64,000 nucleotides of DNA from a virus: positions 64,001-128,000 of the IMG/VR virus record IMGVR_UViG_3300033273_000658; one strand, written 5' to 3'. The notes beneath the pieces are model-generated. The model was not told the origin of the DNA. It worked only from the letters and a program-made list of their open reading frames with translations, and made no database searches. The position numbers and the translations under genes were made by a program. This document shows, piece after piece, positions 18,593 through 40,459 of this stretch. Numbering within the stretch: the first letter of the stretch is position 1; every line of letters begins with the position of its first letter.

Positions 18593-18962
18593 AAGTTACA
18601 TAAAATTTTAACAAACTTCATAAAACATGTCAAACTTTTTATGTAACTTTCTTAAAATTGTCTCTTGCAAGAATCATGCCAAAAATGTTTTACATAACTC
18701 AGACACTGAAATCGTGGCTGCAACTACCTTTAAGGTTGTTTTTGGATCATTGCAAGAACCATGCCAAACTTTTTTTACATAACTTTGAACCATTTTAAGC
18801 AAGTTACATAAAATTTTAACAAACTTCATAAAATGACTTGCAAGAATCGTGCCAATTTTTATTTACATAACTCAGGCATCGAAAACAGCTCTACGAGCTT
18901 CCAAAGGCCAGATCGCTTAACTTTACTATGAAGTTACATAAAATTTTAACAAACTTCATAAA
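18593..18962. repeat. Three exact 32-bp direct repeats AAGTTACATAAAATTTTAACAAACTTCATAAA
   Basis: Copies at 18593, 18801 and 18931; partial inverted and tandem copies nearby. Confidence 0.9.
18665..18872 (-). promoter_or_regulatory. Island A: three sigma54 -24/-12 consensus sites with linked AGTTATGTAA motif
   Basis: Reverse complement of TGGCAY-N5-TTGCAA at 18665, 18750 and 18838. Confidence 0.8.
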
Positions 18963-19057
18963 CTTTAACAAACTTCATAAAAAAAGTGAAGAAAAAGTTT
19001 GACAAGGTTATTTTGCTGGGTTAATGAATATTCTGCAACACAAAACATGGAGACAAC

Positions 19058-19216
19058 ATGAAAGTTGGTGACTTGGTAAAGAATAAATACAACAACAAAG
19101 TTGGGATAATAATCTCACATAGTGGACGGCCACACCGTATACTTGGTGTAATGTACAGTGTGTGGATAGATGGACTTGATGTGCTATTACACGAATCAGA
19201 CTTGGAGGTATTATGA
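19058..19216 (+). CDS. MKxGDLV micro-protein (not in ORF track)
   Basis: MKVGDLVKN...DLEVL*; GGAG RBS after promoter TTGACA at 18999. Confidence 0.7.
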   Translation: MKVGDLVKNKYNNKVGIIISHSGRPHRILGVMYSVWIDGLDVLLHESDLEVL

Positions 19217-19368
19217 TAGGTAGACTTGTGCGTTGCAAATATACAAATGAAATAGGAATAGTGTTGCGTAGGGAAATAACACGCAGAGGAAACTTTCGCT
19301 ACCATGTGTTTATTGGTGGCCATACAGAAAGTTTTCTTCCACATTTCTTGGAGGTGATAGATGAATAA
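19213..19368 (+). CDS. MKxGDLV-family micro-protein
   Basis: MIGRLVRC...FLEVIDE*; ATGA overlap. Confidence 0.7.
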   Translation: MIGRLVRCKYTNEIGIVLRREITRRGNFRYHVFIGGHTESFLPHFLEVIDE

Positions 19369-19531
19369 AGGTGACTTGGTACGGATAAGACATAACGAAC
19401 ATCAAGGGCTATTCATCCTCATGGAAAAATGTTCGGCTGGTAGCCAGTTCGTGAGACTATATTCTTTGAAATACAACCGCGTATGTTTTGATATGATACG
19501 CTCATTAGAGGTGATAAATGCAGAAAGGTGA
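19361..19531 (+). CDS. MKxGDLV-family micro-protein
   Basis: MNKGDLVRI...SLEVINAER*. Confidence 0.7.
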   Translation: MNKGDLVRIRHNEHQGLFILMEKCSAGSQFVRLYSLKYNRVCFDMIRSLEVINAER

Positions 19532-19667
19532 TTTAGTTAGATGTATATACACTGATGAACTATTGGTCATAACTTCGGAAGAAGTTGACGGCTATTTTGA
19601 TGTGTATGCAGTTGGAAATGGAAACATGTGGCTTATGCCCAAAGAACATTTAGAGGTGATAAAATGA
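19518..19667 (+). CDS. MKxGDLV-family micro-protein
   Basis: MQKGDLVRC...HLEVIK*. Confidence 0.7.
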   Translation: MQKGDLVRCIYTDELLVITSEEVDGYFDVYAVGNGNMWLMPKEHLEVIK

Positions 19668-19849
19668 AAGTAGGTGATTTAAGAGTATTTAAGCCTTGTA
19701 GTTTCTATGCAAACAACATGTTTGTTGTCACACAAGTAGACGATATGGACTGCTCAATAACAATAAGAATAATAAAGACAGGAGAAGTGGAATGTTGGGA
19801 TCGAATAATACTTCTTCACGACAGTAAATCCGTATCGGTCAAAAAATAA
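19664..19849 (+). CDS. MKxGDLV-family micro-protein
   Basis: MKVGDLRVF; start after GAGGTGAT. Confidence 0.7.
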   Translation: MKVGDLRVFKPCSFYANNMFVVTQVDDMDCSITIRIIKTGEVECWDRIILLHDSKSVSVKK

Positions 19850-19858
19850 ACTTTTTTC

Positions 19859-19887
19859 TTGACAAAATAATTGCAACACATTAAGCT
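19859..19887 (+). promoter_or_regulatory. Early promoter cassette (representative; relatives at 21166, 23598, 25071, 26320, 27771, 28465, 28841)
   Basis: T-tract-C-TTGACA-17-TAAG(G/C)T (TATTAT at 28841), A/C-rich leader, GGAG RBS. Confidence 0.8.
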
Positions 19888-19916
19888 ATAATTGCCAATC
19901 AAAACATGGAGACAAA

Positions 19917-20660
19917 ATGAACATAGAAAAAACAAAAGAGATTCTGCTAGGAAGAATAAACAAACTGACAGAAGAAGAAAGAGAGTGGATGTACGAAAAC
20001 AATAGAGCATGGTATAACAAATACCTTTTTGATAGTCCGTACCAAAAAGAAGAATACTCCAACTTACAATGGGAAGCTATGTGGCTATGGTCATCCTTTG
20101 GCCAAGACTACCTTCGCAATAAGTCTTTGGCAAAGAAATTTCTATCTTCGGAGAAGAAGATGAATCAAGTCATGGATATGATGCAAGACCGCAAGAAGTG
20201 GTATAATACTCGTGTCGATGAAATAAAGCAGCTACATGCGACTGGTAAGCTCACACAAGAGATTATGGCTTTCTTCATAAGCATGTTTCGCAAAGAAAAC
20301 TTCAATGTCTTTGAGAGCTATGTTAAAGACCCAATCTTTGACACTGGTGCAATTGTGCAGTTTCGCTCCAACATTGGTGTAGACGCAGTTCTTCAAGAAC
20401 ATAAGTATAGTGGTGGCACACAGTATTACGGAGCGAATCATAGTACAATGCGAGAACTTAAGCAAAAGACCATGATGGTGCTGGGTGAAAGTCCACCGTT
20501 GGGCGGCAAGATTTATGCTAGTGCCTATTCTCATAAAGAGAAACAAGGTGGTTCACGCTTGTATCGTGTTCTTCCTATCGGAGACACAAAAGTGTATATT
20601 GTTGTGGAGAAGTTCCTTAAGAAGTGTAGAACAAAGGCAGTGAAAGATGCAAAGAAGTGA
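19917..20660 (+). CDS. Hypothetical protein with C-terminal SH3-like segment
   Basis: First gene after cassette; FDTGAIVQF..YRVL..EKFLK. Confidence 0.65.
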   Translation: MNIEKTKEILLGRINKLTEEEREWMYENNRAWYNKYLFDSPYQKEEYSNLQWEAMWLWSSFGQDYLRNKSLAKKFLSSEKKMNQVMDMMQDRKKWYNTRVDEIKQLHATGKLTQEIMAFFISMFRKENFNVFESYVKDPIFDTGAIVQFRSNIGVDAVLQEHKYSGGTQYYGANHSTMRELKQKTMMVLGESPPLGGKIYASAYSHKEKQGGSRLYRVLPIGDTKVYIVVEKFLKKCRTKAVKDAKK

Positions 20661-20841
20661 TTTCAAGAAAGGCGATCTGTTCAGATACAATAAAGGTATG
20701 TCTATCCATGATGACGTTCATGGGCTTATAGGCATTGTGCTTGCTCCAATCAATCAGTTTGGACAATACAAAGTGCAAGTAGCGCACAAAACATTGTGGG
20801 TTCCTTTTTGTTCCTTGGAGGTGTTAGATGAAGAAAGGTGA
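20647..20841 (+). CDS. MKxGDLV-family micro-protein
   Basis: FKKGDLFRY..GIV..SLEVL. Confidence 0.7.
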   Translation: MQRSDFKKGDLFRYNKGMSIHDDVHGLIGIVLAPINQFGQYKVQVAHKTLWVPFCSLEVLDEER

Positions 20842-20992
20842 TGTGGTAATACCAGTCAGTAAAGATTTAGATAAGACACCTATGATCTACATGGGAATAG
20901 GTTTGTGGACTGGGTGGATACGCGTGTATTGTCCAGCAGATGGACAGATAATACAGGTTAGAAAAACATTCGTACAAAAGGTGGAAGTATGA
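20828..20992 (+). CDS. MKxGDLV-family micro-protein
   Basis: MKKGDVVI...QKVEV*. Confidence 0.65.
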   Translation: MKKGDVVIPVSKDLDKTPMIYMGIGLWTGWIRVYCPADGQIIQVRKTFVQKVEV

Positions 20993-21156
20993 AAGTAGGT
21001 GATCTGGTACAGATGAAAGACACACGCTACCACAAAGAGATAGGTGTGGTCATAAAAACTTTTTTCCATGGCGATTGGCGAATAGAGGTTCATTGGGCTG
21101 ATGGTCGTGTGTTGTGGGAATCAAAGCTGGACTTAATACCTGTTGAAAAAACTTAG
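20989..21156 (+). CDS. MKxGDLV-family micro-protein
   Basis: MKVGDLVQM..IGVV..VHWADG. Confidence 0.7.
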   Translation: MKVGDLVQMKDTRYHKEIGVVIKTFFHGDWRIEVHWADGRVLWESKLDLIPVEKT

Positions 21157-21224
21157 AATTTTTTCTTGACAAGATTTGCTCAATCAGATAAGGTATAAAT
21201 ATAACATCAAAACATGGAGGCAAC

Positions 21225-21578
21225 ATGGCTTACATCAAACCAAAAATGAATGTGTTCTTCGCCAATGGTGGCAAGGCAATAACGGCAGTCATAGACAAGA
21301 TTGCATTTCGCAAGTACATGACAAAACCATACAAAGATCCAAAGACAGGTGAAACCAAACGTAGACAGAAGTCTATGCCGTTCGCAGTGTGTCGTGTGAT
21401 TCTATCTCTTGATCCATCGGTGAATGTGAATGAGACATTCCTTATCGCTGGTTATCAGCTTGAAAATGTAGTTATCAAGAATGAGAAGATGCTCACATTC
21501 AAAAGCGACTACGTTGCAGAGTATGCAAAAGACTATGGTAACGAATGGGTTAGGAGAATAATCAATGAAGATAGGTGA
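21225..21578 (+). CDS. Hypothetical protein
   Basis: First gene after cassette 21166. Confidence 0.65.
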   Translation: MAYIKPKMNVFFANGGKAITAVIDKIAFRKYMTKPYKDPKTGETKRRQKSMPFAVCRVILSLDPSVNVNETFLIAGYQLENVVIKNEKMLTFKSDYVAEYAKDYGNEWVRRIINEDR

Positions 21579-21741
21579 TTTAGTAAAATGTATAGAAACA
21601 GACTACGGAATAGGTATAATCACAATGAAAAGACCTTTTGGTGGTTTTATAGTGTGTTTTCCAAACTCAAAGTTAAAACATAGCGACAAGTGTATTGGTT
21701 TATCAAGAGGAAACTTGGAGGTGATCAATGAAAAAAGGTAG
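21565..21741 (+). CDS. MKxGDLV-family micro-protein
   Basis: MKIGDLVKC..GIGII..NLEVINEKR*. Confidence 0.7.
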   Translation: MKIGDLVKCIETDYGIGIITMKRPFGGFIVCFPNSKLKHSDKCIGLSRGNLEVINEKR

Positions 21742-21895
21742 TTTAGTGAGAATAAAACATTCAGCAGATATGAAACTCATAGGCACATTCGGTATTGTTT
21801 TGGGAGATTTGCAACATGGTCATATCATGATAAAGCGTTTTGTGGATGGTCGTAGAGATACCTATCATCAATCTAGATTGGAGCTGATAGCATGA
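21728..21895 (+). CDS. MKxGDLV-family micro-protein
   Basis: MKKGSLVRI..FGIV..RLELIA*. Confidence 0.7.
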   Translation: MKKGSLVRIKHSADMKLIGTFGIVLGDLQHGHIMIKRFVDGRRDTYHQSRLELIA

Positions 21896-22077
21896 AGATA
21901 GGTGATTTAGTTAGGGTAAACAGTGTTTTCTCTTGGGAACATCAAAAATACTTAGGCAAGATAGGTGTATTGAGGCGCAAAGCAGTAGGTACGGATAGTG
22001 TTTGGCTTGTGTACATAGATGGAAAAACATTATTATTAAGAGATGATAGATTAGAGGTGATAAATGAAAGTAGGTGA
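21892..22077 (+). CDS. MKxGDLV-family micro-protein
   Basis: MKIGDLVRV..RLEVINESR. Confidence 0.7.
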   Translation: MKIGDLVRVNSVFSWEHQKYLGKIGVLRRKAVGTDSVWLVYIDGKTLLLRDDRLEVINESR

Positions 22078-22288
22078 TTTAGTAAAGGTGTCCAACAAAG
22101 GGTTCACAGCGATAGGGTTCATCAAAAATATTATGAAAAGCCAGATGGGTGAATTTTTCATGGTACATTACCTTACCACCAATGGAGTCCCAAACTTTCG
22201 TGGATACACCAATGGTGGGCTGTGGTCAAAGAAGTATCTGCAATTATTAAAGGAGGTGGAAGATGAAAAAGATATTAGCAAGACATAG
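22064..22288 (+). CDS. MKxGDLV-family micro-protein
   Basis: MKVGDLVKV..IGFI. Confidence 0.7.
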   Translation: MKVGDLVKVSNKGFTAIGFIKNIMKSQMGEFFMVHYLTTNGVPNFRGYTNGGLWSKKYLQLLKEVEDEKDISKT

Positions 22289-22451
22289 AGACAAGGAAGT
22301 TTTCAATAAGATCGGCTTTGGAATAGTCACTGAGGATCTTGACGAGACAAAGTGCAAAGTGAAATGGCTGAAAAGCCAGTATGAAACTCTACAACTGAAA
22401 AATTACATCTTTTTGCTTGACGAACAGGCAGAGAACGGCTATATTGAATAG
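22263..22451 (+). CDS. Hypothetical protein, paralog of 16553..16765
   Basis: GFGIV.ED..VKW. Confidence 0.6.
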   Translation: MKKILARHRDKEVFNKIGFGIVTEDLDETKCKVKWLKSQYETLQLKNYIFLLDEQAENGYIE

Positions 22452-22620
22452 ACACAACAGGAGACAACATGTTAGATACAATAGAGAAATGTTATTATGT
22501 GAGCAGTGATAGACTGCATGAGAGTAAACCAATGACTATGTTTCAAGCTTTACGGTTTGCAGATAGTTTAGAGAGACAAGGACACAAGAACGTGTTCTTT
22601 TACAAGGGGCAGTTAGCGAT

Positions 22621-22800
22621 ATGAAGATAGGTGACTTGGTAAAACTGGAATACAAAGGCGTAGATCTTGATGAGAAAGATAGATTGAAGATTGGTATTGT
22701 GGTCAACAATACCATCACAACTTTACAACTGGCCAAGGTTCTTTGGAGTAATGGCGATCAAACATGGTGTTTATGCGAGCAGTTAGAGGTGATAGCATGA
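22621..22800 (+). CDS. MKxGDLV-family micro-protein
   Basis: MKIGDLVKL..IGIVV..QLEVIA*. Confidence 0.7.
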   Translation: MKIGDLVKLEYKGVDLDEKDRLKIGIVVNNTITTLQLAKVLWSNGDQTWCLCEQLEVIA

Positions 22801-22976
22801 AAATAAAAGTAGGAAGTTTAGTACAGATACAAAACTTTGCAAAGTACAGTGGAATGATTGGGATTGTCATATACGTTTGTAGACGAGCAGGTTTTGTCGA
22901 TAGTTACGCAGTAAAGATCCCGAACACCACATACGAGTTAGGTGTGGCGAGAGAACAACTCAAGGCGTTAGCATGA
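22797..22976 (+). CDS. MKxGDLV-family micro-protein
   Basis: MKIKVGSLVQI..IGIV. Confidence 0.7.
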   Translation: MKIKVGSLVQIQNFAKYSGMIGIVIYVCRRAGFVDSYAVKIPNTTYELGVAREQLKALA

Positions 22977-23128
22977 AAGTAGGTGATTTGGTTAAACACA
23001 TGGGGCATGGTCGCATTGGTGTTATTCTTAGAGATCTAGTTCCCAATGCTAGGGTTAAAAGGTATCTTGTTCATTGGGGTGACTATCAGTCATCACAAGT
23101 AGTATGGGCTTTGGAGGTGATAGCATGA
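22973..23128 (+). CDS. MKxGDLV-family micro-protein
   Basis: MKVGDLVKH..IGVI..ALEVIA*. Confidence 0.7.
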   Translation: MKVGDLVKHMGHGRIGVILRDLVPNARVKRYLVHWGDYQSSQVVWALEVIA

Positions 23129-23304
23129 AGAAAGGTGATTTAGTAACGGAGAAGTGGCGCATGTGGCGAAACATAGGTATCGTCAAGAGAGTAGGCAAAG
23201 ACGGATATACAAAGGTTAAATGGATCTTGAAAGCAGATCCAGTAGCTGACGATCAGTTTACCAGTGTGTTCGTTGTAATAGGAGAGATCAATGAAAGTAG
23301 GTGA
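23125..23304 (+). CDS. MKxGDLV-family micro-protein
   Basis: MKKGDLVT..IGIV..VKW. Confidence 0.7.
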   Translation: MKKGDLVTEKWRMWRNIGIVKRVGKDGYTKVKWILKADPVADDQFTSVFVVIGEINESR

Positions 23305-23446
23305 TTTGGCAGAATATTATTTACGTCCAAAAAGCTGGGGCATTATTGTAGGGATAGATACCTTTGAGTATGAGATGTTTTGGATGGATGGAAGCCGTGG
23401 ATGGATCTCAAAACGATCAATGGTCAAGAAAAGAGGTGATCAATGA
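23291..23446 (+). CDS. MKxGDLV-family micro-protein (tandem duplicate 1)
   Basis: MKVGDLAE..WGIIV..DTFEYEMFWMDG. Confidence 0.7.
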   Translation: MKVGDLAEYYLRPKSWGIIVGIDTFEYEMFWMDGSRGWISKRSMVKKRGDQ

Positions 23447-23589
23447 AAGTAGGTGATTTAGCAGAACACCACATCAACTCTTGGTGTTGGGGTATTATTG
23501 TGGCGATGGATACCTTTGAGTATGAGGTGTTTTGGATGGACGGAGAACGCTCTTGGGTAAGAAAAGAAATCATGGTCAAAAAATTATAG
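23443..23589 (+). CDS. MKxGDLV-family micro-protein (tandem duplicate 2)
   Basis: MKVGDLAE..WGIIV..DTFEYEVFWMDG. Confidence 0.7.
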   Translation: MKVGDLAEHHINSWCWGIIVAMDTFEYEVFWMDGERSWVRKEIMVKKL

Positions 23590-23655
23590 CTTTTTTCTTG
23601 ACAAAATAATTCCAATCCTATAAGGTATAAACATAACATCAAAACAGGAGACGAC

Positions 23656-24576
23656 ATGAAACTAGGTTACGCATGTATCAACAAAGGACTATCTGAACAG
23701 TCCATCAAAAACCGTATCACAACCAACCGTACATTTCGCAAGGCTACCTTTGAAGAGAAAGGTTTACCTCATGCGTCTGCTATCTTCTTACAGAACAGTA
23801 AAGACTTGCTTAAGATCCTCCAATGGAACGAGCAACACAACATCAAGTTCTTTCGCTTGTCCTCGCAGATTGTATCGTGGGCTACGGAGTATCAGCTCAC
23901 TGACTTGCCAGACTACGATCAGATTGAAGAAGTTCTTTTTGAGTGTGGTCTATTCATCGAAGAGCATGGTATGCGTGTCACATCACATCCCGATCACTTT
24001 GTCAAACTTGCGTCACCCAATGAGGATGTTGTTCGCAATTCTATTCGTGACTTGGAGATTCATGGTGAGATCTTTGATCTATTGTGCCTACCTCGTACCC
24101 ACTATGCCAAACTGAACATTCATGTTGGCGCGTCCTATGGTGACAAACCCAAGGCTATTGACAACTTTTGTCGTAACGTAGATAGACTATCCGATGCAGT
24201 ACGCTCTCGTTTGACCGTAGAGAATGATGATCGTGCCTCCTTGTACTCTACCCTAGACCTCATGGAAGTTTACAAGCGTGTCGGTACTCCCATCGTACAT
24301 GACCTACACCACCATGGGTTCTGCACTGGTGGTCTATCCAACCCCGATGCTCTTACACTTGCAGTGTCTACATGGGGCGATACTACCCCCGTGGTACACT
24401 ACTCCCAATCCCGTGCCATAGAACACAATGACACGTCCATCAAGGCACATGCACACTCAGACTCATACTGGACACCAGTGGATACATACGGACATGATGT
24501 GGATGTGATGCTTGAATGCAAGCACAAAGAGCTAGGTTTATTCAAGATGCGAGAACTATTAGGAAAAACTATTTAA
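23656..24576 (+). CDS. uvsE: UV DNA damage endonuclease
   Basis: LGYACIN, FFRLSS, HPDHFV.L, NIHVG, LTVENDD, DLHHH, HYSQS, HSD, DVMLECKHKE. Confidence 0.92.
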   Translation: MKLGYACINKGLSEQSIKNRITTNRTFRKATFEEKGLPHASAIFLQNSKDLLKILQWNEQHNIKFFRLSSQIVSWATEYQLTDLPDYDQIEEVLFECGLFIEEHGMRVTSHPDHFVKLASPNEDVVRNSIRDLEIHGEIFDLLCLPRTHYAKLNIHVGASYGDKPKAIDNFCRNVDRLSDAVRSRLTVENDDRASLYSTLDLMEVYKRVGTPIVHDLHHHGFCTGGLSNPDALTLAVSTWGDTTPVVHYSQSRAIEHNDTSIKAHAHSDSYWTPVDTYGHDVDVMLECKHKELGLFKMRELLGKTI

Positions 24577-24590
24577 CAAAGGAGACAACC

Positions 24591-24839
24591 ATGAAAACAG
24601 AAAGAGAACAAGCAATACAAAACCTTATGAAAATAATGCCTGACCATACTGACAGTGCGTTTATAGTTAAACAAGAGGGTGATGATAGTGGCTCGTACCT
24701 ATGTGTGTATGTAGAGCGCACAGAGACAGGTGCAGAGGTATGCAAGACCATCCCAACACCGTTTGAGGGATGGAGAGTGGTGCATGTGTGGTGTCCAGAT
24801 GGGTTCATCAAGCACATACTGGAGAGAACGAGAGAATGA
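24591..24839 (+). CDS. Hypothetical protein
   Basis: ATG after AGGAG. Confidence 0.55.
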   Translation: MKTEREQAIQNLMKIMPDHTDSAFIVKQEGDDSGSYLCVYVERTETGAEVCKTIPTPFEGWRVVHVWCPDGFIKHILERTRE

Positions 24840-25045
24840 AAATAGGCGATCTTGTTGTGTTATCGGCCAAAGGTGCGAAGTTAAAGCACAACCACAATTA
24901 TTATCGTGGCTTTGGAATTATTTTAGAGGTTTACCCAGCGAAAGGATACTATGACTTCGGTATACAGTGGTTTTGCGAGGGTAGATCCACACACAACAAG
25001 AGAGTTTGGTTTAAGAGATACGAGATAAAGAAATTAAAACCTTGA
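24836..25045 (+). CDS. MKxGDLV-family micro-protein
   Basis: MKIGDLVVL..FGII..IQW. Confidence 0.7.
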   Translation: MKIGDLVVLSAKGAKLKHNHNYYRGFGIILEVYPAKGYYDFGIQWFCEGRSTHNKRVWFKRYEIKKLKP

Positions 25046-25129
25046 TTATGAAAAAACTTCAATTTTTTTCTTGACAAAATAATTGTAACCCTATAAGCTA
25101 TAAACACCACACCGAACAACGGAGAAAAA

Positions 25130-25327
25130 ATGATTGGAAAACTAGTAAAACGAAAAGAAAAAAAACACCACAAGTTTTGGGGAGTAGGTATAGTTTTAGA
25201 TTACAGATCCACAGGAAGATTTTACCCCAGTACAGAACTGAAAGTGCATTGGGTTTCCTGTGAAATCGGTTCACAGATTTCTAGCATTGACATTGGGCTT
25301 GTGGAGTTTTTAGATGAAAGCAGGTAG
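25130..25327 (+). CDS. MKxGDLV-family micro-protein
   Basis: MIGKLVK..GVGIV..VHW..VEFLDESR. Confidence 0.7.
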   Translation: MIGKLVKRKEKKHHKFWGVGIVLDYRSTGRFYPSTELKVHWVSCEIGSQISSIDIGLVEFLDESR

Positions 25328-25460
25328 TGTAGTAGAAAATACTTTTGGAGACATTGGTATCGTCATTCGACAGATAGGTGTCGCAGATAGGTGGCTCATT
25401 CAATGGGCTAGTGGAGAAGTTTACGGTATCAATGGATACCAACTAGAGGTGATAGCATGA
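25314..25460 (+). CDS. MKxGDLV-family micro-protein
   Basis: MKAGSVV..IGIV..QLEVIA*. Confidence 0.7.
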   Translation: MKAGSVVENTFGDIGIVIRQIGVADRWLIQWASGEVYGINGYQLEVIA

Positions 25461-25651
25461 AGATAGGTGATTTAGTAAAAGTGACACACAAAGGTAATCG
25501 TACGATTGGATACATCAAAAAGTTTGGACGTTATGGGAAGAGTTATGTTATGGTCGTGTACTTGACTGGCTCTCATGTAGGCAAAGAGCGGTTCTTCTCA
25601 GAAAAAGAAGTCCTACCAATCAATCAACTCATTGGAGAGGAAAGAGCATGA
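25457..25651 (+). CDS. MKxGDLV-family micro-protein
   Basis: MKIGDLVKV..IGYI. Confidence 0.7.
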   Translation: MKIGDLVKVTHKGNRTIGYIKKFGRYGKSYVMVVYLTGSHVGKERFFSEKEVLPINQLIGEERA

Positions 25652-25827
25652 AGATAGGTGATTTAGTTATAGTAAAAGATGTTTTGGGCTACAACACGTA
25701 CATGCAGAACCTTGCCGGTCACATTGGTGTAATTGTCAAGGAAAGGTACAATGAGCATTGGGTGAAAGTCCACATACTAGGAAAAACAAAAAGGATCAGC
25801 ATATATGATTTGAAGGTGATAAAGTGA
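25648..25827 (+). CDS. MKxGDLV-family micro-protein
   Basis: MKIGDLVIV..IGVI..DLKVIK*. Confidence 0.7.
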   Translation: MKIGDLVIVKDVLGYNTYMQNLAGHIGVIVKERYNEHWVKVHILGKTKRISIYDLKVIK

Positions 25828-26000
25828 AGATAGGAACACTATGCGAAGTGGTTGCAATAGCAAGTCATTTTCCATCACAGTTTGGTGATTTAGTGGTCAT
25901 AACAGGATACACACATGGTGTATACATCACTGGAACAAACTTGAAAACAGGCAAAACACATCATTACAACCCAACAGAACTCAAAGAGGTGAAACAATGA
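25824..26000 (+). CDS. MKxGDLV-family micro-protein (GTG start)
   Basis: MKIGTLCEV..ELKEVKQ*. Confidence 0.6.
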   Translation: MKIGTLCEVVAIASHFPSQFGDLVVITGYTHGVYITGTNLKTGKTHHYNPTELKEVKQ

Positions 26001-26296
26001 ACGTATACGAAGTTACAAAAACAAGACCATGGGATGGTAGAGAAACAATAAGTATTCACATGACACGAAAAGGTGCTTTGCAAGTGGCTTGCATAGAGGG
26101 TTTGGATGCACTTTTGGGCTGTTTTCATGAAGATGATGAGGATTTAGCATGGGCAGAAAAGAGTCTTGAAACACTTGAAAACCCAGATCATACGCTCAAA
26201 ATAAAAGAACTGGAAACTATGTTCGATAAATGCGAAGAACTTCTTTGGAGCATAGAAATGGAGGTAGAGGTGCATGAATACGCACTCAAACCATAA
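25997..26296 (+). CDS. Hypothetical acidic protein
   Basis: ATGA-coupled ORF. Confidence 0.6.
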   Translation: MNVYEVTKTRPWDGRETISIHMTRKGALQVACIEGLDALLGCFHEDDEDLAWAEKSLETLENPDHTLKIKELETMFDKCEELLWSIEMEVEVHEYALKP

Positions 26297-27309: not shown

Positions 27310-27310
27310 C

Positions 27311-32064: not shown

Positions 32065-32072
32065 GTGATAAC

Positions 32073-32951: not shown

Positions 32952-33200
32952 ATGGAGGATAAAACTGCAATCACTATCAAAGCAGTCAAAGAGGCTCTAG
33001 ACTTCATAGAGAATCTATGGGGCAATTGGGATGGAGATCTTCATGACTTCGTTGCGAACGTCATAAGTGAAGATACTGTTACACAGTATGACGTGCAACA
33101 CCTTTTGGATGCTCTCTCCAAAGGAGAGCATGTGGATGGGATTGAGACTCTCTATGTCAATAAACGAGGTTCAAAGTACCAAATCAAAATCAAACGGTGA
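32952..33200 (+). CDS. Hypothetical protein
   Basis: ATG after GGAGG. Confidence 0.5.
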   Translation: MEDKTAITIKAVKEALDFIENLWGNWDGDLHDFVANVISEDTVTQYDVQHLLDALSKGEHVDGIETLYVNKRGSKYQIKIKR

Positions 33201-33241
33201 ATGAGGTAATGTAAGGGGCAGTTTCAGAGTAGAGGCACCTC

Positions 33242-33277
33242 TTGCAATTTCCATGCCAAAAAAATTTTACGTAACTC
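33242..33277 (-). promoter_or_regulatory. Island B: one sigma54 composite site
   Basis: Reverse complement GAGTTACGTAA-N8-TGGCATGGAAATTGCAA. Confidence 0.75.
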
Positions 33278-33390
33278 AGACCAGCTCACAACCATCCCCT
33301 AAGGGGATGAAAAAAACTTTCACTTTTTTCTTGACAACCTTTTCTGAACCCTATAAGAGTATTGTACCAACCCAAACCGATGGAAACAAA

Positions 33391-33615
33391 ATGAACAAGA
33401 TCATTTACTTCTACACAATCTACTGGAAATCATTTCCAACTCAGTACAGACCATCCGAGATAGAATCACTGAGTATAGCTTATTCCGAGAACAACGTACC
33501 AAAGGATAGATTCGATCATCATGATGCTGTTTTGGATTATCTTATAGATACCAATCCAAACCCCTTTGAGTCAGTGCCAGAATTTATCATCATCAAGACC
33601 ACAACAGAACAATAG
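33391..33615 (+). CDS. Hypothetical protein
   Basis: ATG at end of cassette. Confidence 0.6.
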   Translation: MNKIIYFYTIYWKSFPTQYRPSEIESLSIAYSENNVPKDRFDHHDAVLDYLIDTNPNPFESVPEFIIIKTTTEQ

Positions 33616-33623
33616 GAGACACC

Positions 33624-33848
33624 ATGAAGTTCCAACCAACAATCCTTATAGACAACGACCTCTACATCAAGATCGAAAAAGGGGAAGTAAAACTTCAATG
33701 TGGCCAATGGATACAACTTGAATGGTGTGATAAACCATCACGATGGGTTGGACTTACCAAAGCCAGAACTTTATGGGCAGTTCACTATCCAGTCAAGATG
33801 AACCAGTTCAAAACATTGTGCAAGAACATAAACCGATTCCAATCATAA
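33624..33848 (+). CDS. Hypothetical protein
   Basis: AGGAG RBS; LQCGQWI..SRWVG. Confidence 0.6.
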   Translation: MKFQPTILIDNDLYIKIEKGEVKLQCGQWIQLEWCDKPSRWVGLTKARTLWAVHYPVKMNQFKTLCKNINRFQS

Positions 33849-34016
33849 TAGGAGACAACCATGAACAAAACTGAAATGTATAGACAACAACTTCGTCAAC
33901 TTCGTAGCAACTTCTATGCTAAAGACAAGCCCACTTTTCAAGAAATGATGGAGTTTGCACAAGAAGAAATCTACCTTGTAAAGAAGATGAACGGAAAGTT
34001 TTAATAGGAGACAACC

Positions 34017-34199
34017 ATGAACAACAAAATGCCTTTATCCTCCATCTTTGATGGGAAAGACCACGAAACCTTTGTATCCATCAATCTTGCCTTGCAAGCT
34101 CTAAACATGGACGGAGTACCATCTGAATTACGAGAGATTACCGAACAAGCTCTTGTGGAATTGCTAAAAGCCAGTTTTGACATGAACAATTGCAACTGA
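34017..34199 (+). CDS. Hypothetical protein
   Basis: AGGAGACAACCATG start. Confidence 0.55.
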   Translation: MNNKMPLSSIFDGKDHETFVSINLALQALNMDGVPSELREITEQALVELLKASFDMNNCN

Positions 34200-34282
34200 G
34201 AAATTTATTTTCAACTTTTTTCTTGACAACCTTTTCTGAACCCTATAAGAGTATTATACCAACCCAAACCGATGGAGACATC

Positions 34283-34537
34283 ATGTCAAAAATGATACAA
34301 CTTGAACCACCCTTTGATAAAGAAATGCCTACCTTTGATGCAATCATGATTGCCGAGGGTGTTGTGCAAGCCGAGAGCAGAGAACAATACATCCAAGCAT
34401 GGCAAGTACTCATCGACACTGGCATGGCCTATCAGCTACAAGGATGGTTCCATAGAACGGCAGATGCTCTTATAGAGAACGGTCACTGCACACCACGAAA
34501 GACACAACAAGCCAACAACCAAACATACTCATGCTAA
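34283..34537 (+). CDS. Hypothetical phage early-type protein
   Basis: WQVLIDTGMAYQLQGWFHRTA motif; cassette start. Confidence 0.6.
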   Translation: MSKMIQLEPPFDKEMPTFDAIMIAEGVVQAESREQYIQAWQVLIDTGMAYQLQGWFHRTADALIENGHCTPRKTQQANNQTYSC

Positions 34538-34901
34538 TAATGGAGAACATCATGATTTATTTCGTAGACTACACATACAACACAACAGGCGCAAACTTTG
34601 GAGCGCAGTACGGTTTCATGCGAATCAAAGCAACATCCAAAGCAGACGCAATCACCAAAGCTAAAAAGCAAGCCCCACGCAACGCAAAAGGCTTCAAGGC
34701 TACACCTGTATAACGGAGACACACATGAATGAAACAGAAGTATTCCTTGCACTCCTTTTCTTATGGGCAACCTTTCTTCTCTTCTCATTGGGCATTGTAC
34801 CTACATAATCAAAGCCTTATAAAAAAATTCAACTTTTTTTCTTGACAACCTTTTCTGAACCCCTTATATAATAAACACCAACCCAAACTGATGGAGACAA
34901 C

Positions 34902-35285
34902 ATGTCACTCATTCTACAACAAAACAAACAAGAAATCAAAGACTTCTGCCTTGACCGACTTCGTGAGCTATCAATCTACATGGGCAATCAAGACTTCCGA
35001 GATGCTTATGTTTCTGACCTGCATGACGACATCTTTAACCGAGACTATTACATCATTGGTCACTACCAAGCTAAACAATGGATGGGGGATTCTGCTTTCG
35101 ATATGATCGGAGACGTTGTAGAGTATGAGCGAGACAACTTCGGAGAAGTCCATACAGACCTTTCTTCTCCCGAAAGCGTTGTGAACATGTGGGTTTATGT
35201 GGAGGGATGGAACATCATTCATAAGTGTTATGAAGCTGTTGTGATGGAGTTGGGTGATGAGCAATGCCAATTGGATGTGACATAA
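34902..35285 (+). CDS. Acidic protein, possible Ocr-like DNA mimic
   Basis: D/E-rich and helical; DLHDDIFN.DYYIIG. Confidence 0.4.
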   Translation: MSLILQQNKQEIKDFCLDRLRELSIYMGNQDFRDAYVSDLHDDIFNRDYYIIGHYQAKQWMGDSAFDMIGDVVEYERDNFGEVHTDLSSPESVVNMWVYVEGWNIIHKCYEAVVMELGDEQCQLDVT

Positions 35286-35361
35286 AATCTCATCTTTTTT
35301 CTTGACAAAGTAAACCGAACCCTATAAGAGTATTATACCAACCCAAACCGATGGAGACATC

Positions 35362-35649
35362 ATGAACAACTATCTTGACCTTGCACTACAAGCCTACCGT
35401 AACGGAACCATGGACACCCGATACGAATACTTCGCAGAAGTAGCTACCCTTGCGAAATTGTATAAAGACTTGCATACGCTTTACTTTGAGATTGATGAAC
35501 TGCAAGAAGAGAAGAATCCCGATGGTTCCTATGTGGACAACACCGAAGAGCTGGAGCGCATGAGACAAGCGTATCGCAACACCCAAGAAATGCTCCATGC
35601 CTATGAAGAATACGCAATCCCCCTCATCTGCAAGCAGGTGTTGAAATGA
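35362..35649 (+). CDS. Hypothetical protein
   Basis: Cassette start. Confidence 0.6.
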   Translation: MNNYLDLALQAYRNGTMDTRYEYFAEVATLAKLYKDLHTLYFEIDELQEEKNPDGSYVDNTEELERMRQAYRNTQEMLHAYEEYAIPLICKQVLK

Positions 35650-35792
35650 GCGACAAAGACTTGAACGCCCTTGCAATAATGATCCTTGTCCTTGCCCTAC
35701 CTTTTATCCTATGCTAACATTCATCATCATCCAACTAACCGTATCAATCACCTACTCATACTTGACCATCTACCTGAACAATCGGAGACCAC

Positions 35793-35981
35793 ATGAAAAA
35801 TAAATCTTTTAATACTCTTGAATCTGCCTATAAGTACTACGATGTTGTATCTCAGAACTATGTAGCTTTCCTTATACTCAATAGAGAAGAAGACAAGTAC
35901 GAAGTAATCAATCAAGACTTGTATGACCACTACGCTTTTGAGTTTGATCTTGACATGGTTATCATGGACTTTGTCTGCTAG
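35793..35981 (+). CDS. Hypothetical acidic protein
   Basis: GGAG RBS. Confidence 0.55.
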   Translation: MKNKSFNTLESAYKYYDVVSQNYVAFLILNREEDKYEVINQDLYDHYAFEFDLDMVIMDFVC

Positions 35982-36045
35982 GCTACTCCCCTCTACCGTA
36001 CTACCCCCCTACCCTACCCCCCTACCTAACCGACCGGAGATTTAC

Positions 36046-36288
36046 ATGAACACTCAATCCACCCTCACACAAATTATCGATAGAACCCTTGCACTCATTG
36101 ACAACGGACTTGAACGCTCCGTAGGAGACATGCGCCTTATGGACGCTCTTGAGCTTGTGGGTGTCCTCATGGACATACGTGAACGTCAGCTCGTATACGA
36201 TAATGAGCGCAGTGTTTCCGAGCCTATTCCATCATGCAGAAAGGCATGTATGAAAAAGCCCAAATGCAAAGGTACAGATGGGCTATAA
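36046..36288 (+). CDS. Hypothetical protein
   Basis: ATG after GGAG, downstream of a C-rich tract. Confidence 0.5.
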   Translation: MNTQSTLTQIIDRTLALIDNGLERSVGDMRLMDALELVGVLMDIRERQLVYDNERSVSEPIPSCRKACMKKPKCKGTDGL

Positions 36289-36492
36289 AACGGAGGAAAT
36301 AAACTTTATGAAAGTATTGTTTTGTGGCGTGTTATGGATGTATTGAAATTTTCCTTTATTGTCGGGAGTATCTGAGCTAAAACAGCTCCTAAGCACACCA
36401 CCCACTACTAAGTAGTACCCCCAAAACTAAAACGCCTTTTTTCCCCGAAACTTTTGAAATAGGGGAATCTTTTTTTTGCCCAAAATCTAATT

Positions 36493-36665
36493 GAAAATGA
36501 GAATCATTATCAAAATGCGCCTTGCAATTTCCGTGCCAAAACTTCTTTACATAACTCCGAGCCGATTGTCCTTGCAATTTCCGTGCCAAAACTTCTTTAC
36601 ATAACTCCGAGATCACCCGAAAATACCCCTTGCAAAAAGCGTGCCAAAAAAATTTCACATAACTC
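36493..36665 (-). promoter_or_regulatory. Island C: Fur box plus three sigma54 composite sites (42-bp exact direct repeat, period 50)
   Basis: GAAAATGAGAATCATTATC at 36493; sigma54 sites at 36522, 36572, 36630. Confidence 0.8.
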
Positions 36666-36816
36666 AAAACAGCTTTCCAGATAGCTGGGATTAAGGTGGC
36701 TCCCGTAGGGAGATAAAAAAAATGAAAAAAAAGTTTGACACCAGAAACACCATCGGATAGAAGTAAGTATCGGCTTTTTTCGATGGTCGAATTTTCACAT
36801 CCCTTTCGGAGCTATC

Positions 36817-37116
36817 ATGCCCTACTACGCTTTCTTCCACTGTTCCCACTGCAATTGCCTCCTCCCAGAACATGATCAATCCTTTGGATTCTACCGAGAC
36901 GATAACGACAAAGCAGTTTGTTTACGTTGCTTCAGCTCTCTTGATGGAGAACTACCTGTCGATGTACAACAAGCATTTGAGGCTATCATAGAGCGTATGG
37001 ATGAGTATCACGAGACCTTTCGTGGAGCTATGGTTCATGTGTCCTATGAGTATGGTACAAATGAGACGCACCACCAACAGCTTTGGGCTATGTACCGAGA
37101 TCTATACAAGTCCTAA
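36817..37116 (+). CDS. Zn-finger hypothetical protein
   Basis: CSHC...CLRC; promoter TTGACA at 36735. Confidence 0.55.
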   Translation: MPYYAFFHCSHCNCLLPEHDQSFGFYRDDNDKAVCLRCFSSLDGELPVDVQQAFEAIIERMDEYHETFRGAMVHVSYEYGTNETHHQQLWAMYRDLYKS

Positions 37117-37463
37117 AAACCGGCCTTTGAAGGCCCTTCCTTTAACATCCAACCCCTAGCGAGATAAACTCATGATGTACAATAATCACTTCAATCCGTT
37201 CCCCTATCTAATCATTGCAATCTATACCTCCCTAATCTTCATTGGCCTTGCAGGGTTCTATCAGAACATAGCACACCCAAAACCCTTGCCAAAGGTAGAG
37301 ATTCCCCACAATGAAGTCGAAATCACATTTATTTCAAAATAATTCTTGACACCACCAAAATAACCCAGTATACTGTATAGAGACGATAACGATTGAGATA
37401 ATGAGTTTCAAGACTGCTGAATCGATCCGAAGTCTCTCCAACCCCTCCCAAATAGGAAACCCC

Positions 37464-37808
37464 ATGCCACGTTACTTTTCTTGCTCTTGCCACCTCAACA
37501 CCGAAACCACTTGCCGACACGATAGAGATCCTTTCAATGCTCTCCGTATGAGAACCGACTGGACTGTAGCTGACTTCGATGGTCTCAGCTCAAAAGAAGT
37601 CCAAGCTATCAATGAGTCCAATGCACGATACAACCAGCTTGCAGAAGAGATTGAGGAGATGAACATCTCCATAGCTATGCGCCAGATGGACGATGGAACC
37701 TACAACAAAAAACCACGTAGAACCAAGCGTATCAAACGCGTCTCTCTCTCAGAAGAACAACAAGCCGAGATTATCGCAGATCTCAAAGAGGACGGCTACG
37801 AAGTGTAG
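37464..37808 (+). CDS. Hypothetical protein
   Basis: Promoter TTGACA-17-TATACT at 37346; AGGA RBS. Confidence 0.55.
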   Translation: MPRYFSCSCHLNTETTCRHDRDPFNALRMRTDWTVADFDGLSSKEVQAINESNARYNQLAEEIEEMNISIAMRQMDDGTYNKKPRRTKRIKRVSLSEEQQAEIIADLKEDGYEV

Positions 37809-37873
37809 CCAACTCTTCTACCCTACTACATACCACCCTACTACCCTACTACCCCACCCCCAAGGACATACCC

Positions 37874-38263
37874 ATGAGCACATCTAACGCTAACAACGAG
37901 ACCACTATTAACCCCTCTTCTCTTCCAACTGCTGAATACCTCTATGCTCGCAACCCTGCTCTCCGAGACTCCAAAAACACCATCTCATACACGCAGTTCG
38001 ATAAAATCGTGCGCTCAATAGAGCCAAGCGCATACCAGCAATTACGCCTCATAGAGCTATGTGAGATGTACAACGCTCTCACACGTGAGCAACAGGTAGC
38101 ACAGGATGAGCCACACTTAAGCGCAGAAGATGACTTTGCAATCTTTACAGATCAAAACGGGTTTACTATCATTCAGCATGAACCAACCTTTATCAAGTTT
38201 AAGCTTATGGGCTATGAGAGTGTCGAAATGAAACGGCCGAGAAGACTCTCAATCATACTCTAA
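37874..38263 (+). CDS. Hypothetical protein
   Basis: AAGGA RBS after a C-rich tract. Confidence 0.55.
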   Translation: MSTSNANNETTINPSSLPTAEYLYARNPALRDSKNTISYTQFDKIVRSIEPSAYQQLRLIELCEMYNALTREQQVAQDEPHLSAEDDFAIFTDQNGFTIIQHEPTFIKFKLMGYESVEMKRPRRLSIIL

Positions 38264-38297
38264 GTTTTTGGAGTTTGCCAGAAGAACCATTTCATTT

Positions 38298-38498
38298 TGA
38301 GAATGGTTCTCATTTTTTTAGCTCGGTCATTTTGAGAATCATTCTCAATTTCAGTTTTTGGCATGAGCTTTGCAATATTGCAAGAAGTGTGCCAAACTTT
38401 TTTGACATAACTCAGACCGTTTTTCTCTTGCAAAAACCGTGCCAAAAAAAATTGTCATAACTCAAATGGCCTAGCTGGCCATTTGAGAATCATTCTCA
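38298..38498. promoter_or_regulatory. Island D: three Fur-type 7-1-7 boxes plus three sigma54 sites (two convergent)
   Basis: TGAGAATGGTTCTCA at 38298, TGAGAATCATTCTCA at 38333 and 38484; sigma54 + at 38359, - at 38378, - at 38428; 11-bp inverted repeat 38461-38487. Confidence 0.8.
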
Positions 38499-38668
38499 TT
38501 TAGAAAAAAATGAAAAAAAGTGAAAAAAAAGTTTGACATAGCAAAATGAGTCGGGTATTATAGAGTATGCCTTTTTTGAGGCTGTCGCTCTTTTACATCC
38601 CCAATAACAAATCTTCCTCTCCGTGGCTGTTCATGGAGAGAGACAAACTTCTTTATATGGAGCCAACC

Positions 38669-39094
38669 ATGGCAACAATCATTCTCAATTCTCTTAATCT
38701 CCTCACAAAAATCATCAATCAAGGTGCTTTTGCAACTGACGCTATCGCAGAAGTCCAGAACACCTATGGTCTTGATCAAGAGCAGGTCGATACCGTACTC
38801 ATGGAGTACAACATCAATCAGATGCGTTCCCAGCGTTCTCAGCTCACACTGACTGTCTGCTTAAAGAACGCATCCAGCGTAGAGATTCCTCTTACTCAGG
38901 CCCAGTTCGATCTGCTCATGGCGCAGTTCAATACTGGGGATGCAAAGGATCCCTATGGGAATCTCATTGTGAGAAGTGTAGAGATCACTGACAACAAGCG
39001 TATCCGTCAGCATGGTTATGCACCCGATGGAAACACAGGTTACAACTGGGGTTATGCATCCACAGGACGCTTGTCACATCCCAGTGATGAATAA
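38669..39094 (+). CDS. Hypothetical protein
   Basis: ATG after GGAG; promoter TTGACA-17-TATTAT at 38533. Confidence 0.55.
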   Translation: MATIILNSLNLLTKIINQGAFATDAIAEVQNTYGLDQEQVDTVLMEYNINQMRSQRSQLTLTVCLKNASSVEIPLTQAQFDLLMAQFNTGDAKDPYGNLIVRSVEITDNKRIRQHGYAPDGNTGYNWGYASTGRLSHPSDE

Positions 39095-39330
39095 ACATCC
39101 ACCCAATCACCCAAAACAGGGGGCGCAAGCCCCCAAGGAGCTTGTATGAGCCGTTTAATGAATCTTGCACACCTTGGAAATCCACTTGTAAAATGCACAA
39201 AATGTGGATTCCAATACCCCAAACTTGGAAAGTGGTCAATTGCCACCCATCAATGTACAGGAAAGAAAAAATGAGACTAGATCACTTCGTCATCAAACCA
39301 CCCACAACCAACCTTTATAGAGGAGCCACC

Positions 39331-39708
39331 ATGGCCATTTCAAACACACCCAAAACCAACACCCAAACCATCACAACAGGAGCCACCATGGCACACTATC
39401 CACAAAACACCCCATCTGTAACCCAGTCACGAGGCTTTGAGTCGTCACACATGACTTGGGTTCGCACACAACAAACTGGATCGGATCTTGTATACGGTCG
39501 TATTCGTGACACCGGAGCCAACTACATTGTAGAGGGTTATCGATCTGGTGTATGGGTTGCGATCCCTTGCAAGAATCTCCCAAGTGCACAGCTTCTTCTT
39601 GGTGGTGTCATGCCAAAGGCAACACACAAACGAGAAAAGGCGCACTATGACTTTCAGAAAGCCCATGTAGAGCTATACGCATGGTGGAAAGACCACAGCA
39701 TTGTATAA
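39331..39708 (+). CDS. Hypothetical protein with two in-frame AGGAGCCACCATG starts (39331, 39388)
   Basis: Duplicated initiation region. Confidence 0.5.
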   Translation: MAISNTPKTNTQTITTGATMAHYPQNTPSVTQSRGFESSHMTWVRTQQTGSDLVYGRIRDTGANYIVEGYRSGVWVAIPCKNLPSAQLLLGGVMPKATHKREKAHYDFQKAHVELYAWWKDHSIV

Positions 39709-39783
39709 CTCTTCCAGTGCTCTAGCCGTGGCATAAAACGGCCTACTACCCCACCCCCGTACCCCCACAAACAGGAGACATCC

Positions 39784-40143
39784 ATGTCACACGAGACACC
39801 CGAAACCAACCCCACAACCCCACAAAACACTACCACCAAGAAAGTTCTTTACATTGCTCATTTATGCCCATACGACATGGCTCAGTATGGATATGGAACC
39901 ACACATCGCTTTTCAGATCGGGAGGAGTTTGAGGCTTTCCGAGCCTCCAAAGGCTCTCGTTGTGATGACTACAGTCGTTGGATCTACCATGTGCGCACCA
40001 TCTTTAATCGAATCGAAGAAGGATACGATGTAGACTCGTGGTATTTCGACTATGGTGTCAATAATGACGGTTCAGTTTCAAAAACCCCATACGGACATTG
40101 GAACCAGTACCATGCAGATTTCAAGAGCTTTCCCGAAATCTAG
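39784..40143 (+). CDS. Hypothetical protein
   Basis: AGGAG RBS after a C-rich tract. Confidence 0.55.
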   Translation: MSHETPETNPTTPQNTTTKKVLYIAHLCPYDMAQYGYGTTHRFSDREEFEAFRASKGSRCDDYSRWIYHVRTIFNRIEEGYDVDSWYFDYGVNNDGSVSKTPYGHWNQYHADFKSFPEI

Positions 40144-40170
40144 TCACGTCAAGTCTTGACGTAACAACAT

Positions 40171-40197
40171 GAGCCGAAATTTTCGGCTCTTTTTTTT
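40171..40197 (+). terminator. Rho-independent terminator
   Basis: GAGCCGAAA/TTTCGGCTC hairpin then T8. Confidence 0.75.
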
Positions 40198-40211
40198 GAG
40201 CTTGATCATTT

Positions 40212-40459
40212 TGAGAATCATTCTCAATTTCTGTTTTAACAAATTTCATAAAATTTTATGCAAGTTAGATAAAAATCCTCTTGCAATAACCGTGCCAAAC
40301 TTTCTTTACGTAACTCCAAAAATCTTGCATGCAAGAAGTGTGCCAAAAAAACTTTACGTAACTCAAACCGGATAGCTGAAAATCCTCTTGCAAGAAGTGT
40401 GCCAAACTTTCTTTACGTAACTCAAAACACATAGCTGAGCATTTTTGAAAATCTTCTCA
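40212..40459 (-). promoter_or_regulatory. Island E: Fur box plus three sigma54 composite sites
   Basis: TGAGAATCATTCTCA at 40212; sigma54 sites at 40281, 40329, 40388, each with TTACGTAACT. Confidence 0.8.

Follow-up and report, generated by a model that had tools for sequence, protein, structure and literature searches.

Thirteen sites matching the sigma-54 -24/-12 consensus were found between the early operons of an uncultured, marine, T4-like phage with many relatives in ocean metagenomes. Twelve of them lay on the strand opposite every gene, each held in a fixed relation to a second motif. Sigma-54 is the bacterial sigma factor that awaits a signal-driven ATPase, and we tentatively read these arrays as host sigma-54 holoenzyme sites in a composite module, which may act as enhancer-dependent leftward promoters; judged from sequence comparison, we would place this reading just short of probable. 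The layout looks more like that of backward-firing, host-state-gated promoters than of passive decoys.

The window analyzed here is a stretch of 64,000 nucleotides (positions 64,001 to 128,000 of IMG/VR record IMGVR_UViG_3300033273_000658) from a phage genome of 141,005 bases (78% complete, 37.5% GC). It held 13 exact matches to TGGCAY-N5-TTGCA, 12 on the minus strand and one on the plus strand (38359), compared with 0.06 expected from shuffles, in line with the initial annotation, which had expected well under one by chance. When the scan was extended to all 141,005 bases, no further match was obtained. All 13 cores fell within genome positions 82.6–104.4 kb, the early region, and were grouped in five intergenic islands, every one of them between plus-strand genes (Table 1). 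The sites reported earlier were all present, with minus-strand positions one too low (18666, not 18665). The convergent pair in island 4 was also real, and the gap between its 16-mers (38359(+)/38379(−)) was 4 nt rather than the 2 bp first given. Stacked sites were 47–89 bp apart, and the stacks lay directly after terminators and before the next promoter. The islands had been called gene-free, and the open reading frames overlapping the sites (a start at 33253, 36389–36667 on the minus strand, 38260–38460, and 40169–40375) were indeed repeat artefacts; comparison with relatives placed the true start of the island-2 gene at the ATG at 33392. Throughout the window, no credible minus-strand gene was seen downstream of the sites, as had been stated.

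Table 1. Coordinates of the sigma-54-type units and associated elements in the window.
Feature	Position	Strand	Details
Island 1 unit 1	18666..18700	-	core 18666-18681; partner GAGTTATG at 18693-18700
Island 1 unit 2	18751..18785	-	partner motif variant AAGTTATG
Island 1 unit 3	18839..18873	-	composite unit
Island 1 leftward sigma-70 promoter	18605..18633	-	TTGACA, 17 nt, TAAAAT with TG; downstream of the three units, co-directional
Bare partner-motif copy CTTTACATAACT	18570..18581	+	without core; at stop codon of upstream gene
Island 2 single unit	33243..33277	-	adjoins conserved stem-loop after upstream gene
Island 3 unit 1	36523..36557	-	composite unit
Island 3 unit 2	36573..36607	-	composite unit
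Island 3 unit 3	36631..36665	-	composite unit
Island 3 Fur-type 7-1-7 box	36498..36512	.	10 nt after last core, about +1 of predicted start
Island 4 plus-strand core, the only one	38359..38374	+	without partner motif; convergent with unit 38379
Island 4 unit 1	38379..38413	-	composite unit
Island 4 unit 2	38429..38463	-	partner variant GAGTTATGAC
Island 4 Fur-type palindrome	38333..38347	.	left of units; more copies 38298-38312, 38484-38498
Island 5 unit 1	40282..40316	-	composite unit
Island 5 unit 2	40330..40364	-	composite unit
Island 5 unit 3	40389..40423	-	composite unit
Island 5 Fur-type palindrome	40212..40226	.	left of units; degenerate copy near 40446-40460
Rightward sigma-70 early promoter, -35 hexamer after island 1	18999..19004	+	TTGACA
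Equivalent -35 hexamers after islands 2-5	33331, 36735, 38533 (TTGACA); 40505 (TTTGCA)	+	

Each minus-strand site formed a rigid 35-bp unit consisting of GAGTTAYG, 10 nt, and the -24/-12 core. The partner site as a whole was 12 bp long (GAGTTAYGTAAA), occupied -45 to -34, and stood a fixed 19 nt ahead of the consensus core. Units were stacked one to four deep on the antisense strand in the spacers between early operons. Within TGGCAY(R)-N4-TTGCW, the GG and GC dinucleotides were 10 bp apart in 13 of 13 window sites, and among 182 distinct units, drawn from about 80 contigs, GG was retained in all 182 and GC in at least 181. The positions -26T, -23C, -22A, -15T, and -14T were essentially invariant in these units; C was preferred over T at -21 and G over A at -20, and -19 to -16 varied. 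The claim that the spacer varies while GG/GC and their spacing stay fixed therefore holds in the window and in the relatives. These positions, secondary preferences included, agree with the published sigma-54 consensus. One unit core matched the pspG site of E. coli, which PMC4591121 lists as mapped by ChIP, at 16 of 17 positions.

The partner motif stood at exactly 19 nt in 182 of 201 cores, and most others carried a degenerate copy. Cores also occurred without it, on the same strand, in a second, unrelated upstream context, which indicates that the core is an independent module. Conversely, the partner motif alone formed tandem arrays with iteron-like 28–31 bp spacing in three relatives (L010, L012, and L122), so its binder is probably a phage-lineage factor that was coupled to sigma-54 later. 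IHF, NtcA, TyrR box, ArcA, and OmpR sites were considered as identities for the partner site, and the likeness was weak or failed in the bare arrays.

The composite unit was present in at least 120 marine metagenome contigs, and 200 of 201 distinct cores shared the antisense strand. At the contig level, 64 of 80 were clearly antisense to their genes and six were called sense; three of these six were chance matches in coding sequence and two align antisense with the window. Among 185,579 bacterial species genomes, the unit was absent save for four single chance-level matches. The number of units per island differed between the window and a relative whose neighboring protein was 98% identical (L004). 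Islands of L010 and L012 could not be placed onto the window by synteny, and neither Pfam nor PHROGs gave anything informative for the genes flanking the islands.

Each island was flanked by terminator stem-loops and sigma-70 early promoters (TTGACA), and the plus-strand sigma-70-type promoters reported after all five islands were present. Together with the conservation above, this supports the earlier proposal of sigma-54-type sites under selection, antisense, and upstream of sigma-70 early promoters. For the stem-loops on the right side of the arrays, an RNA tetraloop interpretation was discarded, since on either strand they can just as well be taken for triloops. Fourteen island-1-type contigs were aligned, the window among them, and the 13 others all kept the leftward sigma-70 promoter of island 1, most with a perfect TTGACA-N17-TATAAT and some with TATATT. 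In 24 of 88 distinct arrays, a Fur-type box (a 7-1-7 inverted repeat with at most three mismatches to the classical TGATAAT-N-ATTATCA) began 10–12 nt past the core, with varying letters between. This places the candidate Fur site at +1 to +3 of the predicted sigma-54 start. Apart from Fur boxes or the sigma-70 promoter, nothing was conserved downstream of the cores in the 182 units; no leftward terminator was found, and an Rfam search gave no family match.

On the preferred reading, the phage lineage would have built a composite module from the partner motif and a consensus -24/-12 core. Leftward firing of sigma-54 polymerase from the units would require an active host activator ATPase and, in arrays with a Fur-type box over the start site, would also require that the Fur-type repressor be inactive. 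In island 1, the constitutive sigma-70 promoter would contribute to the same leftward transcript. Having passed back over the upstream terminator, the polymerase would enter the preceding operon from its 3′ end, giving antisense RNA and head-on transcriptional interference. Early transcription might thereby be braked or insulated according to the state of the host, with the activator reporting, for example, nitrogen or membrane stress and Fur reporting iron. If this is true, early-gene spacers would wire together consensus sigma-54 sites, Fur-type boxes, and the partner site, and a widespread group of ocean phages would read the nutrient or stress state of the host at the very start of infection, by way of antisense transcription, which studies of phage gene control seldom take into account. 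The constant 19-nt distance also gives a concrete starting point in the search for a new protein that partners sigma-54 polymerase. It is improbable, in our estimate, that a phage-lineage protein bound at the partner site touches the promoter-bound holoenzyme from -45 to -34 and opens it without a canonical AAA+ ATPase or locks it closed; the phage would in that case own a private switch on the host sigma-54 polymerase, used for antisense early-gene control or for sequestering the enzyme.

Of the three functions first suggested, host-state-dependent antisense RNA fitted best, and the pure decoy and the roadblock were not supported as they had been stated. Both belong to an explanation we consider unlikely, in which the units are docking sites that do not fire: closed sigma-54 holoenzyme on them would block or insulate, in an oriented manner, against read-through from the upstream operon, or the arrays would soak up sigma-54 at the expense of the host regulon. 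In favor of this, sigma-54 holoenzyme can sit stably in a closed complex as long as no activator acts, and in E. coli the majority of sites show no transcription (PMC4591121); the phage offers 12 sites per genome copy, closely stacked right after terminators and ahead of the next promoter, with neither activator gene nor recognizable enhancer found. A decoy, however, has no need of a fixed strand, yet polarity was 200 to 1, and the Fur-type box locked at the predicted start and the conserved sigma-70 promoter firing in the same direction are hard to explain without firing. In addition, a genome-wide E. coli test did not see roadblock repression by bound sigma-54 holoenzyme (PMC4591121), and trapped holoenzyme would also tie up core polymerase that the phage needs. 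Somewhat more doubtful is that the sigma-54 likeness is coincidental and the 35-bp unit is an operator of one or two phage DNA-binding proteins, or a rightward promoter for a phage-redirected polymerase. The strict 19-nt coupling, the bare partner arrays, and the virtual absence of the composite from bacterial genomes all speak for this, and the plus-strand reading of the units points with the genes from upstream of them. Against it, all consensus positions were matched, including Y at -21, R at -20, and a free spacer, and cores also occurred without the partner motif. In the gene direction, no -10 hexamer combined A at position 2 with T at position 6, so a valid sigma-70 -10 element was lacking, and hexamer content and spacing argued against gene-sense promoters of the sigma-70 (with or without a MotA-like box), sigma-32, sigma-28, or ECF type. 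Neither a phage RNA polymerase nor a phage sigma-70-family factor was found; weak PF00940 matches in relatives, taken as a possible single-subunit RNA polymerase, proved to be T4-type terminase.

Tandem promoters at T7 and T4 origins yield primer or R-loop RNA for replication, and the leftward promoters might do likewise, with the partner-motif repeats as iterons. Island 1 is an AT-rich field with several repeat families, and its tandem leftward promoters run against the rightward transcription of the rest of the genome; the bare partner arrays have iteron-like spacing, and GC skew is reversed over 28–42 kb, which holds four islands. We nevertheless rate this origin-type explanation as highly improbable: there are five separate islands spread over 22 kb, no initiator gene could be recognized, the explanation does not account for the Fur coupling, and the skew change coincides with a change in GC content and may therefore simply mark foreign DNA.

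In the 78%-complete genome and a close relative, no sigma-54 gene (Sigma54_DBD or Sigma54_CBD), no sigma-54 activator gene, and no Fis-type helix-turn-helix (HTH_8) was found; the best PF00158 match, to a MoxR-type ATPase lacking GAFTGA, reached 15.1 bits against a cut-off of 20.2. No classical distal enhancer was recognized. These absences count against the promoter reading, as do the missing leftward terminator and Rfam match, the lack of conserved sequence past the cores other than Fur boxes or the sigma-70 promoter, and the lack of arrays in relatives at 55–71% protein identity. Tandem sigma-54 promoters 48 bp apart are also unusual, which counts the same way.

To our knowledge, hardly any sigma-54 promoters have been described in phages, and we know of no Fur-operated sigma-54 promoter. 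Fur-repressed promoters share with these arrays the 7-1-7 inverted repeat across the predicted start, with at most three mismatches to the classical box; the promoter covered by the candidate site would here be of sigma-54 type and on a phage. E. coli sigma-54 sites, both intergenic and intragenic antisense, were mapped by Bonocora et al. 2015 (PMC4591121). Bacterial sigma-54 promoters have the identical -24 GG/-12 GC core, spacing, and secondary preferences, and many are likewise antisense or far from genes and silent without an activator. Unlike them, the phage arrays are one to four deep, carry a second motif at a fixed distance (-45 to -34), and are near-absolutely antisense, with no distal enhancer or activator gene identified. 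According to PMC10914365, Pseudomonas phage YuA, which is virulent and encodes no polymerase, relies on both sigma-54 and sigma-70 of its host, and one sigma-54-like promoter (P015) was confirmed by promoter trap and 5′-end mapping (Ceyssens et al. 2008, cited there); this example indicates that sigma-54 promoters are workable in a phage. PeSL cassettes of T4-type phages combine a terminator stem-loop with a sigma-70 early promoter between small, fast-turning-over ORFs (PMC2839356, PMC4122927), and the islands have the same order of stem-loop terminator and sigma-70 early promoter among small variable ORFs. The PeSLs of PMC4122927, which does not mention sigma-54, comprise a stem-loop and a sigma-70-like early promoter, with no antisense promoters, partner motif, or Fur boxes in the passages covered.

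The remark on rpoN in Myxococcus xanthus had no bearing on this marine phage of 37.5% GC. A Bacteroidota host is argued against by the canonical TTGACA/TATAAT early promoters, given the promoter consensus of that group, and a cyanobacterial host weakly by the absence of psbA. The phage tmRNA had no real match among 400 genomes from the class of a ‘gamma proteobacterium symbiont’ MAG (G006), and megablast of the phage against known phages gave no match. The nearest cultured relatives were a Flavobacterium phage (47% terminase identity) and a Microcystis phage (43%).

The pattern TGGCAY-N5-TTGCA matched 13 times in the window compared with 0.06 matches expected by chance, and a scan of the 141,005-base genome, proposed in the initial annotation, found it nowhere outside these sites. 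Twelve of the 13 matches were on the minus strand, spread over five gene-free spacers (islands 1–5) separating plus-strand operons. The excess over chance and the placement of minus-strand sites away from genes, both claimed earlier, were thus reproduced; the face-to-face pair was confirmed at 38359/38379, and the rightward promoter coordinates were correct on inspection.

The window covers positions 64,001–128,000 of the source record, a linear, uncultured virus of 37.5% GC with an estimated completeness of 78%, and all credible genes are carried by the plus strand. These include a T4-type terminase and portal, a DnaE-type polymerase, a chaperonin, a PIN-PhoH protein, a MoxR-type ATPase with a VWA partner, and a tmRNA. 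By terminase identity the nearest cultured phages were distant (Flavobacterium phage, 47%; Microcystis phage, 43%), and psbA was absent from complete relatives. Dozens of canonical sigma-70 promoters (TTGACA, 17 nt, TATAAT) were observed, every one rightward (in gene direction) and many carrying a TG as well as an A/T-rich element upstream. Searches of this 78% complete genome gave no RNA polymerase of the phage's own and no sigma-70-family factor, sigma-54 or sigma-54 activator; the sole AAA match was the MoxR-type protein, which has no GAFTGA loop. Long runs of micro-genes, with products starting MK(V/I)GDLV and a ribosome-binding site for each gene, are a hallmark of the entire phage group. 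One segment showed negative GC skew and raised GC content while its genes stayed on the plus strand; as four of the five islands also fall within it, this segment may be foreign or hyperplastic.

Each minus-strand site sat in a rigid 35-bp unit, which in the sigma-54 direction reads GAGTTAYG (the partner motif), 10 A/T-rich bases and TTGGCAY-N5-TTGCA. Distances between units clustered at 47–51, 56–59, 69, and 82–89 bp. Read along the genes, every island opens with the terminator at an operon's end, in many cases followed by a Fur-type 7-1-7 palindrome; between one and three units come next, then a short GC stem-loop, and finally an A-rich tract ahead of the following sigma-70 promoter. Copies of a second repeat family lie among the units of island 1; in relatives this repeat is a near-palindrome readable as an extended -10 element both ways.

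Position counts were taken over 182 distinct units, using the partner motif as anchor and tolerating up to three core mismatches. GG was present in all 182 units and GC in at least 181, and -26 T, -23 C, -22 A, -15 T, and -14 T were essentially invariant. Positions -21 (C 115, T 66), -20 (G 130, A 49), and -11 (A 170, T 11) showed preferences, and -19 to -16 varied. Judged by these counts, the core is the sigma-54 consensus, secondary preferences included. One window core was identical at 16 of 17 positions to the E. coli pspG site, which was mapped by ChIP (PMC4591121). In 14 aligned island-1-type contigs both core blocks were kept in orthologous units and the spacer changed. Some cores, on the same strand, had a conserved sequence of quite another kind upstream of them, which indicates that the core is a module in its own right. 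A coincidental likeness to sigma-54 sites is, in our estimate, quite improbable.

The partner motif lay exactly 19 nt from the core in 182 of 201 distinct cores, and most of the others had a degenerate copy in the same place. Among the 201, the only gene-strand core was the window's 38359 copy. By a crude ORF measure, arrays were clearly antisense in 64 of 80 contigs and ambiguous in 10. Of the six called sense, three were chance matches in coding sequence and two align antisense with the window; contig L122, from a different phage type, is a genuine exception. Downstream of the core, in the sigma-54 direction, three main settings were observed: a perfect leftward (minus-strand) sigma-70 promoter, kept in the 14 island-1-type contigs; a Fur-type box, seen in 24 of the 88 distinct arrays, that begins 10–12 nt past the core; and, in the island-2 type, a conserved stem-loop at a conserved gene's end. 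In a fourth group the array is followed by the antisense strand of the terminator that ends the upstream operon. The Fur-type boxes of the 24 arrays begin between +1 and +3 relative to the predicted sigma-54 start, and the letters between core and box vary; relatives carry two or three such palindromes in tandem.

A fixed strand, a box of repressor type placed at the start site, and a sigma-70 promoter pointing the same way are features expected of firing promoters, and we therefore favour reading the islands as leftward, activator-dependent sigma-54 promoters. Their transcripts or polymerases would extend back into the operon that precedes the island, producing host-state-dependent interference or antisense RNA. 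Host-state-dependent antisense RNA, already suggested in the initial annotation, gains from these three features and loses from the lack of conserved sequence downstream of the cores, where Rfam also gave no family matches; no activator or enhancer was identified for the arrays. The decoy or roadblock proposed there is retained as a rival, in which the arrays would be docking sites, but polarity is superfluous for a sponge, and bound sigma-54 polymerase did not repress as a roadblock when tested in E. coli (PMC4591121); we consider it unlikely. That the units are instead bound by a phage protein is also unlikely, and an origin-type role for the islands appears very improbable. Without a core, the partner motif formed tandem arrays, 28–31 bp apart, in three related contigs (L010, L012, L122), with at most one sigma-54 core within them. 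Since it stands alone there, the motif is probably a binding site of wider use in the phage group, one that some lineages combine with the sigma-54 core.

Coordinates of features (window positions unless a contig is named)
Feature	Position	Strand	Remarks
tmRNA gene, full-length	1498-1883	+	Rfam 101.9 bits; ARAGORN tag peptide ANNNNYFEVAQAA
Repeat family, AAGTTACATAAAATTTTAACAAACTTCATAAA and relatives	18590-18990		island 1
MK(V/I)GDLV micro-gene runs	19058-26000		also in relatives
Skewed segment	28000-42000		GC 41-45% vs 32-41%
Mini-ORF, hydrophobic	36308-36346	+	12 codons; strong ribosome-binding site; after last gene ahead of island 3
Fur-type 7-1-7 palindromes, TGAGAATCATTCTCA and variants	36498-36512, 38298-38312, 38333-38347, 38484-38498, 40212-40226, about 40446-40460		flanking arrays
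GGACA-N5/6-TGTCC	40469-40483		palindrome
Hydrophobic ORFs, two or three	40654-40830		about 26 codons; good ribosome-binding sites; immediately past island 5
Partner-motif arrays	L122 130-320; L010 14963-15047; L012 16159-16249		3 to 6 copies; iteron-like

The close relative L004 (neighbouring protein 98% identical) carried the same units in different numbers, and 78 relatives at 54–71% identity had none above chance level. The composite pattern was nearly absent from bacteria (four single matches in 185,579 species genomes) and was found in 12 stretches of viral contigs and at least 120 contigs from marine metagenomes. YuA is a precedent for sigma-54 promoters in a phage (PMC10914365). PeSL cassettes are otherwise similar in layout to the islands, but the available sections of PMC2839356 and PMC4122927 describe them without the sigma-54 modules seen here. 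In agreement with the earlier statement that such phage arrays are not known, no antisense arrays joined to a second motif and to Fur-type boxes turned up in the literature searched.

Other small elements were observed near the islands. In relatives (such as L004 near 15404, and contigs L141, L159, and L167), an extra sigma-54 core with another upstream context points antisense over the mini-ORF, an arrangement reminiscent of type I toxin-antitoxin pairs; this core has decayed in the window copy. The GGACA-N5/6-TGTCC palindrome, present also in L009, L012, and many metagenome loci, lies on or directly upstream of the -35 element of early rightward promoters throughout the phage group, even in relatives that have no sigma-54 sites; it probably serves as an operator or an activator site.
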